Virus record (IMG/VR): IMGVR_UViG_3300036406_001149
Source: a virus
Direction: 5' to 3' (one strand)
Length of the DNA stretch: 64,000 nucleotides
Under the pieces are notes generated by a model. It was not told the origin of the DNA, searched no databases, and saw nothing but the letters and a program-made list of their open reading frames with translations. Below, in pieces: positions 915-18,308 of the stretch; positions within the stretch are counted from its first letter, which is position 1; the number at the start of each line of letters is the position of its first letter. A program made the position numbers and the translations under genes.

Positions 915-3900
915 ATGGCTAGTACTTTTAACCTTACTGCACAACTTAACCTAAGAGGTCCTGCTAATATTAGAGCTGTTGTAGCTAATATTAGAAGACA
1001 AATAGGTACTATTGATGCTAATGTTAATATTGTTGTAAATCCTGCTGCGGTACGTAATTCTACAGCACTTAATACGGCACTAGTAAGACTAAACACCACA
1101 TTACAAACTACTACTGTTAATGCTACCAGTGCTGCCAATGCCATTAATGCATTAGTAGCATCAATGACTTCTGCTTCTAGTCTTAGACCGCCACCAGCTT
1201 TAGTCAATATGCCAGGAACACTAGCTTCTATAGGAGACGCTGCTAGACCGATTGGAACAACTATAGAAACAGCAACTGGTGAAATTACTAATTTCGGTAG
1301 ACAAGCAGGATTAGCTGTTAGAAGATTCTCAGCTTTTGCTGCAACGACAGGTATTATTTATTCGTTTACTAATGCTATTAATAGTGGATTAAAAGCGTAT
1401 ATAGAATTTGATAAACAATTAACAAGATTATCACAGGTAACAGAAGAGAGTCGATCAGGACTTACGGGCCTTACCAATAATATTACTAGTTTGGCTACAT
1501 CTCTTGGCGTTAGTTCATCAGAGCTAGCTAATGTATCAGTCACGCTTGCTCAGGCTGGTTTAAGTGCACAGGATACATCCAAAGCTTTAAAAGCGTTAGC
1601 TCTTAGTGCTTTGGCCCCATCTTTCGATCAATTAAATGATACCGTAGAAGGTAGTATCGCATTGATGAGACAGTTCGGTATTAGCGCAGGGGATTTAGAA
1701 GGAGCACTAGGCTCCATAAACTCAGTTGCTGCTAAATTTGCCGTTGAAGCTTCTGACCTTATTACAGCTATTCAAAGAACCGGTGGTGTGTTCGCATCAG
1801 CTAGTCGCGGAGTTAGTGAAGGCACAGATGCTTTAAATGAATTCTTAGCAATTTTTACCAGTATTAGAGCTACTACTCGTGAAAGCGCAGAAACTATTGC
1901 AACAGGTTTAAGAACTATTTTTACTAGAATTCAAAGAGCAGAAACTATAGACGCTCTAAAAGAATTCGGAGTTGTACTTACAGACCTTGAAGGTAAGTTC
2001 GTAGGACCATTCGTAGCCGTACAAAGATTAGCAGAGGGCTTAGGAAGATTAGATCCAAGAGATTTAAAATTCTCACAGATAGTTGAAGAGCTTGGAGGTT
2101 TTAGACAAATAGGTAAAGTGTTACCACTTATTCAACAATTCGCCACTGCTCAAGAAGCATTAGCGGTTGCTCAAGCTGGACAAGGATCTTTGGCGACTGA
2201 CGCAGCTAAAGGACAATTAGCATTAGCAGTACAAATTCAAAAAGTGAGAGAAGAGTTTGCAGCACTAATACGAAGTATCGGAGAAACAGATAGTTTCCGT
2301 ACAATGATTACACTAGGTTTGGATTTAGCTAGTGCTTTAATAAAAGTTGCTGACGCAACCAAAGGAGTGCTACCATTAGTAGGTTTGATGGCCGCATTCA
2401 AAGGTATTAGTGGTATTACGCAATTTGCTACTGGATTTGCTGGAGGACTTAGAGGCACTCCAGCTACACAAACCAGAAGATTTGCTACTGGTGGTTATGT
2501 TCCCGGTTCCGGAAACAGCGACACTGTACCAGCAAGATTGACTCCAGGAGAATTTGTAATTCGTAAAAAAGCTGTAGAAGCTATTGGCGTTGGTAAATTA
2601 CAGGCTTTGAATAGAAATGCTGGCGGACCAATATCCATTCAGAGATCTAGTATTGGCAGAGGACCTGTCCAGAAATTTAGTGTAGGAGGAAGCCCTGAAA
2701 CACAAACAAATAATGAGTTAACTACTCATAGAACTCATATAGGTCCTAAAATAGCATTATCTCCAAAACAAGCAAAACTAGCAAGATCCTATGGATACAG
2801 CCAGTCTTACGCAGCGTTAGGAGCAGAAAGACAAATTGACTTTGCTCCGTATCTCCCAGCAGTTTGGAATGAACAATGGAGAAGAGGCGGATCAAATAAA
2901 GGAGTTGCTCTTTCTGAAATCCTTAATTATGTTAATCCAAGATCACCAGAACAACTATTTGGTAGAGGAGGTATTCCTTCGTTACTTTATAATAAATTAT
3001 CTAGAAGAAACCAATTACTGCCTTTAAAAAATGTTTTCTTATCCGGATTAAGAGCAGCTCCTTCACTTATTCAAAAAGATTCTCAACTAGATTTTATCTT
3101 GCCAAATTATATTAAACCATTTTTAGATTCATTAGATCTATGGTCACCATTAGCTGAAAAACAAACCTTAACTATTCCTAGAAAATTTTCAGGAACTGAT
3201 GTTTTTAAGACCTTGTTAGACAAAGGAGTTCTTAAAACAAAAGTAAGAACTACTACACCAGGTATTCGTAAATCTTTAGCTCAGGATTTAGGAAATACTT
3301 TTGCCAATGGTGGTTCTATAAGAGCATTCGCTGAAGCAGGAGCAGTGTCTGCTACAGGTGGCAAGCCAGCAACTGCCTCGGAAATACTCAGGGTATTAGG
3401 AGCACAAAAAGCTGCGGCTGCTGGTGGAATATCTTCAACAGATGTATATACTTTACTTAAAAAACAAAAATTAACACCAGAACAGGAAGCAAGTAAAAAA
3501 GCTATTTTTGCAGAATTTACTAAACAACAAAATAGATTATCTGGAGCACAAAAGGCTAAAACCACCAGAGCAGAATCCAAAGGACTAGTATTTGGCGCTG
3601 CTGGTATGATGGGATCCGCATTTGCTCCTATTAATAAGACTATTAATTCTAATTTATTAAAATCTCCGGTGAGTGTGAGGATTGTTAGTGGACTTATGAA
3701 TCCAGATACAGCAGCTTCTCTGGACCAGTCTTTTTCTTCCTCTGTTAACAAAACTGCCAAACAAGCTGCTAAAAAAGTAATGGTGGCTGATATTTTATCT
3801 AATCTTGGTCTTGGTAGAGAATTGAATTTGGATTTTGACAGAACATTAGCTTTTGGAGCAGATAAAGTGTTGGCTGATCCAAAAACTCCAAAGTTTGCTG

Positions 3901-18308: not shown

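Follow-up and report, generated by a model that had tools for sequence, protein, structure and literature searches.

A giant tape measure protein of an uncultured lake-water siphovirus with predicted enzyme cassettes between repeated joints

The locus described here raises the question why the tape measure protein (TMP) of a phage, the ruler of its tail, should have enzyme-like domains lodged along its length. It lies in the IMG/VR virus record IMGVR_UViG_3300036406_001149, from which a stretch of 64,000 nucleotides, the window, was analysed; the window corresponds to bases 1488-65487 of a viral contig of 114.7 kb with an estimated completeness of 83%. The TMP gene occupies positions 915..18308 on the plus strand, as do all its segments given below, and it is a single open frame of 5,797 amino acids (aa) without stops that falls in PHROG TMP families. 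A preliminary description, made from the letters of this DNA alone, had reported one 5797-aa frame with a TMP core, and this was borne out: residues 190-393 match PF10145 with 79.1 bits (cut-off 33.2, E 5e-22), residues 149-477 match TIGR01760 with 94.8 bits (cut-off 28.8, E 5e-27), and several PHROG tape-measure families match within the first 500 residues. The carrier is the tail TMP of a large siphovirus from lake water that has not been cultured. All relatives have its N-terminal ruler core (aa 1-514, 915..2456), with 44-70% identity in 49 viral loci. At least three of the cassettes in this chain, a HAD phosphatase and two unrelated ADP-ribosyltransferases (ARTs) that we call ART1 and ART2, are probably active enzymes, as predicted from their folds and motifs, and we favor as a fairly probable explanation that the cassettes are delivered into the host for takeover or counter-defence.

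Contigs without mismatches from four lake-water runs, none of them the likely source of the record, tile the whole TMP gene at 100% identity, and each of the eight repeated joints described below is bridged by at least one of these contigs. This shows that the gene is real, correctly assembled and not a chimera. Read-level links between joint-coding words (21-letter sides, for example 2495 to 17744) were considered as alternative forms of the gene and rejected, as they connect different copies of the joint or different phages. The preliminary description had called the segments compositionally distinct, which is not visible in the DNA, where the G+C content is 0.35-0.38 along the whole gene and there are no foreign-looking blocks within it.

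The motif D[TS]VPAxLTPGEFV occurs eight times, at aa 536, 1437, 2656, 3701, 4234, 4856, 5346, and 5611, and each occurrence lies within a repeat of about 80 aa, the joint, whose consensus is A-x-GG-x-(I/V)-Y-A ... G-T-D-T-V-P-A-M-L-T-P-G-E-F-V-V-N-R ... L-L-x-x-I-N ... Y-S-x-GG. Joint 1 (aa 515-593, 2457..2693; 59.6 bits with a hidden Markov model (HMM) of the repeat) and joint 2 (aa 1421-1494, 5175..5396; repeat HMM and alignment) are a shorter variant. The others are joint 3 (aa 2628-2705, 8796..9029; 122.5 bits), joint 4 (aa 3672-3750, 11928..12164), joint 5 (aa 4204-4289, 13524..13781), joint 6 (aa 4827-4908, 15390..15638; repeat HMM and alignment), joint 7 (aa 5316-5401, 16860..17117), and joint 8 (aa 5581-5659, 17655..17891; 121.6 bits), of which joints 4, 5 and 7 were likewise located with the repeat HMM. 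The copies are 36-81% identical to one another in amino acids, and where residues are conserved the third codon positions have an identity of only about 0.5, which indicates that the joints are old duplicates under protein-level selection and not recent ones. All twelve x-x-GG motifs that had been listed along with the DTVPAxLTPGEFV linker are present. The motif [FY]xxGG was observed 20 times when 2.6 were expected, an about 8-fold enrichment (the maximum in 500 shuffles was 9), and Q.[FY]xxGG was observed 7 times when 0.16 were expected. As read from the repeat alignment, the aromatic-x-x-GG motifs are the two ends of the joint unit and they also stand singly at cassette borders. The observation that the first ART lies between FASGG and YATGG was also confirmed, the Pfam envelope being aa 1218-1422 with FASGG at 1208-1212 and YATGG at 1429-1433. 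This arrangement is general among the relatives: a hydrophobic-x-x-GG motif is found within 25 aa of the N edge of ART1 in 14 of 16 cases and of its C edge in 16 of 16, and within 25 aa of the two edges of ART2 in 14/19 and 15/19, compared to 10-15% for random positions. A joint of about 80 aa, or a short piece of one, fences each cassette.

The joint unit matches the C-terminal ends of several TMP PHROGs (25241, 17300, 35029), and single copies are found at the C-terminal ends of the TMPs of Nodularia, Pseudanabaena, Gordonia, Brevundimonas, and other phages. Ordinary TMPs have this module once, near the C-terminus, and the joint is a multiplied form of it. The joint core, GEFV...aromatic-A-x-GG, also aligns with residues ~750-782 of lambda gpH in its Gly-rich C-terminal (gpHC) region, but this match, though specific, is weak and covers only about 32 residues (hmmsearch E 0.46; hhalign probability 69%, E 4e-5). 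Unlike lambda gpH and the other TMPs with a single module, which have one copy each, this TMP has eight, and a role as a cassette border has not been described for the gpH module. In lambda the Gly-rich C-terminal part of gpH is cleaved off by a protease, and at a site, that have not been identified (PMC12617516). The link between the joint and gpH gives a handle on this 40-year-old question of the site and the catalyst of gpH cleavage, and the conserved joints also amount to a natural rule for where foreign domains can enter a TMP. When the joint was modelled as a homotrimer (3 x 83 aa, alignment of 40 rows), the score was 0.01, which weighs neither way.

The first enzyme cassette, at aa 965-1116 (3807..4262), was examined in a model of aa 796-1436 that was built from an alignment of 18 rows. 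The cassette corresponds to model residues 170-321, where pLDDT was 85-96, and a Foldseek search with the model returned HAD phosphatases only, with a probability of 1.0. With VIA-align, 58 chains matched the cassette at Z of at least 8, the top 50 being nearly all HADs, and the top match was the 3'-phosphatase of T4 Pnkp (Z 11.9, root-mean-square deviation (rmsd) 2.8 over 124 residues). All four HAD motifs, I at D973-F-D975-R-T977, II at T1037, III at K1080, and IV at D1092-D1093, are kept in 14 sequences of 27-69% identity. None of the HAD models of Pfam and NCBIfam matches the cassette, and one relative gave DUF2608 at E 0.0013. The earlier assignment as a HAD phosphatase is therefore upheld by the modelled fold and the conserved motifs. 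Like the T4 Pnkp 3'-phosphatase (5uj0, 1ltq; Z 11.9 and 10.9) and Pnkp1 (4xrp; Z 10.9), the cassette is cap-less in the model and has a DxDxT motif, whereas the identity is only 11-12% and the cassette has no kinase partner. From the model it is probably a cap-less phosphatase of the T4 Pnkp 3'-phosphatase type. Next to it, at aa 1125-1200 (4287..4514), is a restriction endonuclease (REase)-like module with E1135, D1153 and D1174-A-K1176, a PD-(D/E)xK-like pattern, E...D(F/Y)P...(D/E)xK, that is kept in 13 relatives. A domain of REase fold had been proposed here; only the conserved motif speaks for that fold, as there was no Pfam match, pLDDT was 66-88, and the fold search with the modelled piece was dominated by the HAD domain. 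The module is a motif-level lead.

ART1, at aa 1213-1428 (4551..5198), matches PF03496 (ADPrib_exo_Tox) above the cut-off of 23.4 bits, with 27.6 bits when searched in a piece of 641 aa and 23.5 bits in a piece of 2,000 aa, and its closest relatives match the same family down to E 3.8e-9. The SISR motif with R1272, the STS motif (S1322-T-S1324), and the ExE motif (E1395-N-E1397) do not vary among 16 homologues, which are 56-82% identical. Together with the Pfam match, the STS and ExE motifs agree with the earlier placing of this domain in the R-S-E clade of ARTs. The catalytic arginine had been thought to be replaced, and indeed the position of the canonical (Y/F)-R-(G/W) arginine reads LYTS in ART1. 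However, the invariant R1272 lies four residues further on, 50 aa before STS, and so the arginine is more likely displaced by four residues than replaced, as judged from the alignment. Searches of PDB sequences with the whole protein in halves, with ART1, with ART2, and with an ART1 profile of four sequences gave nothing significant, the sole hint being XopAI at the ExE region with E 1.1. A word-indexed homologue search with ART1 alone, against targets of 124-396 aa, gave no match. On the strength of its motifs ART1 is probably an R-S-E ADP-ribosyltransferase and is predicted to be an enzyme.

ART2, at aa 4607-4836 (14733..15422), is of a different type. An exhaustive HMMER search found 145 homologues at E<=0.001, many of which are stand-alone proteins of 220-300 aa; some 20 others lie inserted in proteins of 2,500-6,400 aa. 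None of 44 aligned members of the family has a Pfam match at E<=0.01, ART-PolyVal included. The model of ART2 had a pLDDT of 85 and a pTM of 0.81, and its top 50 VIA neighbours were nearly all ARTs at Z 5-7.8. The best matches were the Tpt1-like 9ld3 (Z 7.8, rmsd 3.1, 84 aa), TreX (Z 7.4), and PARP16 (Z 7.3), and further neighbours included PARP13, diphtheria toxin, PltA, pertussis toxin, Arr, and DarT. In BFVD the neighbours were ART-PolyVal, DarT, and RNA 2'-phosphotransferase, and in the Atlas they were PARP, DUF3990, and RES clusters. Of the 44 sequences, stand-alone proteins included, all or at least 90% have residues H4612, Y4646, D4693, and E4695, and K4817-Y4818 is likewise invariant or nearly so. 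The earlier call of an H-Y-clade ART is thus consistent with the ART fold of the model and with the conserved H, Y and D/E, and ART2 is probably an ART-fold enzyme of an unnamed family of the H-Y-D/E type. The ART2 family and the TMP-specific HAD family would be new enzyme families. A separate observation came from Foldseek, in which the best hit of the ART2 model was chain B of PDB 9k3a at residues ~1421-1608, which is gp28 of cyanophage A4 (E 1.5e-3; VIA Z 5.5). The paper on A4 names transglycosylase and M23 domains in gp28 and leaves an alpha+beta domain unnamed. By this structural comparison, an ejection protein of a podovirus may contain an ART-like fold in the form of the alpha+beta domain of the A4 pre-ejectosome gp28.

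When viral contigs were scanned for the N-terminal core, the 49 loci mentioned above were found. Full TMP genes from nine records encode proteins of 4,021-7,795 aa, on contigs of 85-244 kb of which four were judged complete, and eight further TMPs have 2,023-3,244 aa. In all of the relatives the core is followed by a joint, and each TMP has 2-10 joints, except L034, which has two weak matches only. The core, the body of about 1,100 aa, and the C-terminal end are collinear among relatives, whereas the segments between joints come and go. In about 35 TMPs a joint is immediately preceded by either ART1 or ART2. In most relatives ART2 comes between the HAD module and joint 2, where this phage has ART1, so that by their positions the two are alternatives in one slot; in this TMP both ART classes occur together with the HAD module. 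ART2, in the TMP or elsewhere, was absent from all nine related phage records that were searched for it (four of them complete). The identities of the cassettes do not follow those of the core. One TMP has an ART1 of 82% identity and a core of only 47%, relatives with cores of 66-68% identity are without ART1 or have ART2 instead, and the identity of the block of HAD and REase-like module, which ranges from 81% to 31%, is likewise incongruent with that of the core. The preliminary description had suggested that linkers would be conserved among relatives while the cargo varies, and this is what was found, with joints kept, ART1 and ART2 swapped, and core and cassette identities at odds.

Several observations on the inserts of the relatives stand beside these comparisons. 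In a TMP fragment of L063 (P0018), at aa 1-400, ART1 comes before HAD, each fenced by Q-x-F-A-x-GG, and because this order reverses that of the window, which is HAD, REase-like, ART1, cassettes move independently. Calcium-binding EF-hand motifs (PF00036, PF13405, PF13202) turned up in three of the insert chunks from related TMPs, as well as in the nearly identical relative of this TMP, P0167, and there were single matches to SHD1 and to a cytidylyltransferase-related region. An HExxH module with the sequence YHE(M/L)THQLF..LR lies inside the TMPs of several relatives (G002 at aa ~1823, G005 at aa ~1916, P0024, P0025, and P0032) and is, from its motif, a candidate metallopeptidase cassette. A different module, HETGH, was seen in P0011. 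No HExxH module is present in the TMP of the window.

How, then, might a tail ruler come to use such enzymes? It is known that TMPs fill the tail tube, leave it ahead of the DNA and help to form a trans-envelope channel (PMC12617516, PMC10770324), and ARTs have a precedent in injected multi-domain phage proteins (PMC5512222, PMC7824862). In the explanation that we favor, the ruler parts, namely the core, the body of about 1,100 aa and the C-terminal end, would be interrupted by exchangeable cassettes that enter the host as soon as infection begins. The cassettes would make sense only in a cytoplasm because ARTs depend on NAD+ and the substrates of a Pnkp-type phosphatase are nucleotides or nucleic-acid ends that carry a phosphate. 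The delivered enzymes would act on host proteins or nucleic acids in takeover or counter-defence: the ARTs might ADP-ribosylate host transcription, translation or defence proteins, or nucleic acids, and the other candidate roles are to repair RNA ends or signalling nucleotides or to interfere with them. Delivery appears to be the best reading because enzymes of this kind have been captured time and again by the protein that arrives first, with their catalytic residues kept. If it is correct, this TMP is more than a ruler and a channel former, being a modular carrier that brings ready-made NAD+-using and phosphatase enzymes into the host ahead of all phage gene expression. Such a delivery route by a TMP is so far known only for the RNA polymerase of phage P23-45.

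Several points weigh against this explanation. About 3,000 aa, made up of the inserts that we designate X1, X4, X5, X6a, X7, and X8, are without a recognisable fold or family, and the idea of a multi-effector protein is evidenced for about 600 of the 5,797 residues only. In some 40,000 residues of the inserts of relatives, Pfam sees only EF-hands, PF03496 and a few single matches. The arginine of ART1 is outside of the canonical (Y/F)RG context and the ART1 part of the model is unusable, with a pLDDT of 30-45, because only four sequences covered that part. The structural scores of ART2 are modest (best Z 7.8, Foldseek E>=1.5e-3), though the list of neighbours is consistent. Finally, folded domains of 20-25 kDa, in three or six copies, should not fit into a tail lumen of about 4 nm.

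One alternative is that the TMP is an effector polyprotein in which the joints and GG motifs are processing sites, so that the chain is cut into free enzymes at tail maturation or at ejection. The joint profile matches gpH at ~750-782, inside the part that lambda cleaves off, pb2 of T5 is also cleaved (PMC12617516), and GG motifs are found at the cassette edges of this TMP. Some relatives have the conserved HExxH module and metallopeptidases have been proposed to release the domains of polyvalent proteins (PMC5512222); the TMP of the window, however, has no HExxH, and the gpH match is weak as noted. No C48 or C39 protease was found in this phage and four complete relatives, while the search for C5 matched no control genome either and is therefore uninformative. 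Moreover, gp96 of P23-45 is full-length in virions (PMC10770324). Taken together, we think a polyprotein unlikely. A particular form of it, in which the joints are true processing or release sites and the TMP passes through the tail as an unfolded chain, to be cut in the host into several free enzymes, is also doubtful in our estimate. Were this form correct, a whole clade of large aquatic phages would have a cassette-swappable effector delivery system in the tail ruler, and the processing of joints would point to where and why lambda cuts gpH.

It is also conceivable that the targets of the enzymes lie in the producing cell or among the components of the phage itself, virion proteins, tail assembly factors or phage DNA/RNA for instance being modified late in infection, and that the TMP is a tether for co-expression or localisation only. 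NAD+ and nucleotide substrates are equally available in the producing cell, ejection of the cassette parts is not evidenced here, and the stand-alone homologues of ART2 among small phage-like genes indicate that activity needs no TMP carrier. Yet without delivery it is difficult to see why unrelated enzymes have been inserted recurrently into the first-ejected protein, for a late intracellular role a separate gene would be cheaper, and the precedent of P23-45 is one of delivery; we regard this alternative as improbable. The inserts might, on the other hand, be mostly ruler material that was captured for length and tunes a very long tail, the enzyme folds being incidental or decaying. A TMP accounts for about 0.15 nm of tail per residue and the whole chain here would be worth about 870 nm. 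The TMPs of the family range from about 2,000 to 7,800 aa, most of the insert sequence has no recognisable family, and TMP length sets tail length (PMC10770324). What speaks against it is that the catalytic motifs of all three enzymes are invariant across 14-44 diverged homologues (27-82% identity), which would not be expected of decaying spacers, and that ART2 keeps the invariant residues of its stand-alone homologues; we regard this account as very improbable.

The preliminary description knew of no similar architecture, but there are two close precedents, gp96 of P23-45 (PMC10770324) and the polyvalent proteins (PMC5512222), the first being the closest published case and the second the closest concept. 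In the Thermus phage P23-45, as also in P74-26, G20c, and TSP4, gp96 is a TMP of 5,002 aa with a fused virion RNA polymerase, which transcribes the first genes (PMC10770324). Both proteins are giant siphovirus TMPs that have an enzyme acting in the cytoplasm in the same chain, and both have relatives with and without the fused enzyme. They differ in that gp96 has one N-terminal enzyme, with no repeated joints or cassette slots described, whereas the TMP of this phage has several unrelated enzymes inside the chain, set between multiplied joints and swapped from relative to relative. Apart from TMP features the two sequences are unrelated. The polyvalent proteins of phages and conjugative elements (PMC5512222) are, like this TMP, very large, mosaic and rapidly shuffled, with unrelated enzymes including ARTs, and are presumed to arrive in the host along with the DNA. 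One of their defining traits is also found here, as several unrelated effector-type enzymes are in one chain whose architecture varies among relatives. Their carriers are head, conjugation-delivered or other injected proteins, TMPs not being mentioned in PMC5512222, and unlike them this TMP has no MPTase domain and no ART-PolyVal Pfam match.

T4 Alt and the MuF-VIP2 fusions of actinobacteriophages (PMC7302621) also have an R-S-E ART in a virion protein, presumably for delivery, but those are packaged in the head while this one is in a tail ruler, and no close sequence similarity was found. With bacterial polymorphic toxins (Rhs and CDI, with the ART tips TreX and TreTu) the TMP shares a conserved scaffold with swappable enzyme cassettes, and TreX, the ART tip of a polymorphic toxin, is among the best structural neighbours of ART2 (Z 7.4). 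In contrast to these toxins, the cassettes are internal and are not C-terminal tips, no immunity gene follows, and no pre-toxin domain was detected. A study of protein mosaicism reported a mosaic signal in TMPs in which genuine cases were not confirmed (PMC10684548). In a full-text search of the literature we found no description of a TMP with enzyme cassettes fenced by joints.

The remaining segments of the TMP are as follows. Between joint 1 and the HAD cassette are X1 and X2a (aa 594-960, 2694..3794), with no assigned fold and no Pfam match; the model of aa 796-960, a block that begins at FANGG (aa 796), is a helix plus a small sheet with pLDDT 55-79. After joint 2 comes the conserved ruler body (aa 1500-2627, 5412..8795), which is collinear with the TMPs of seven relatives (G001, G003, G005, G006, G002, G004, and G009) and has a hydrophobic transmembrane-like segment at aa 1830-1849. 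X4 (aa 2706-3671, 9030..11927) is non-repetitive and common only to G001, G003 and L002. X5 (aa 3751-4203, 12165..13523) has one close relative only, in P0167 with 84% identity, and a hydrophobic stretch at aa 3890-3914. It had been taken for a pre-toxin TG domain (PT-TG, PF14449), a claim that did not hold, as aa 3751-4203 gave no match to that family at E<=1 and the resemblance is one of loose motifs. X6a (aa 4290-4606, 13782..14732) has a Gly-rich hydrophobic stretch in its sequence and no significant Pfam match. X7 (aa 4909-5315, 15639..16859) has no homologue in the sampled relatives, and the leucine-rich repeat (LRR)-like repeats that had been ascribed to it were not supported, since no LRR family matched at E<=1 and the Atlas gave only unnamed clusters at 0.87. 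X8 (aa 5402-5580, 17118..17654) is helix-rich by composition, with weak similarity to G001 and G003, and the C-terminal tail (aa 5660-5797, 17892..18305) is kept in G001 (40%), L031 (33%), and P0167 (99%). A Pfam search at E<=1 with X1, X5, X6a, X7, X8, each half of X4, the REase-like module and the C-terminus yielded nothing beyond chance-level matches, with no PT-TG, LRR or nuclease among them, and Atlas feature searches, with scores of 0.87 for X7 and 0.80 for X4, gave unnamed clusters only.

Downstream of the TMP gene are five large open reading frames (ORFs) on the same strand, of 936 to 2,526 aa, of which just one, that of 2,526 aa, has matches to PHROGs of virion structure, baseplate or fibre; the genes upstream are mostly beyond the window. 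The phage DNA was found nearly unchanged, with 88-100% of the sampled words of window positions 9000-18400, in at least 20 lake-water metagenome runs from 2020-2025. This recurrence over 20 runs indicates that the phage is a persistent lake resident, and material for proteomics or isolation may therefore be obtainable. A replication module on the opposite strand encodes a DNA polymerase, a primase, a DnaB-type helicase, a UvsX-like recombinase, and an exonuclease. The DNA polymerase (phrog_405) is in two ORFs at 49735-54045 on the minus strand, with 52171-54045 covering profile positions 43-614 and 49735-51297 covering 623-1072, and between the two halves are an ORF of 230 aa (51278-51970) and a gap of about 200 bp. 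This could be an insertion of an intron or a homing endonuclease, or a split gene. Beside the replication module, at 46440-49269 on the minus strand, are two adjoining glycosyltransferase-like genes (phrog_2170).

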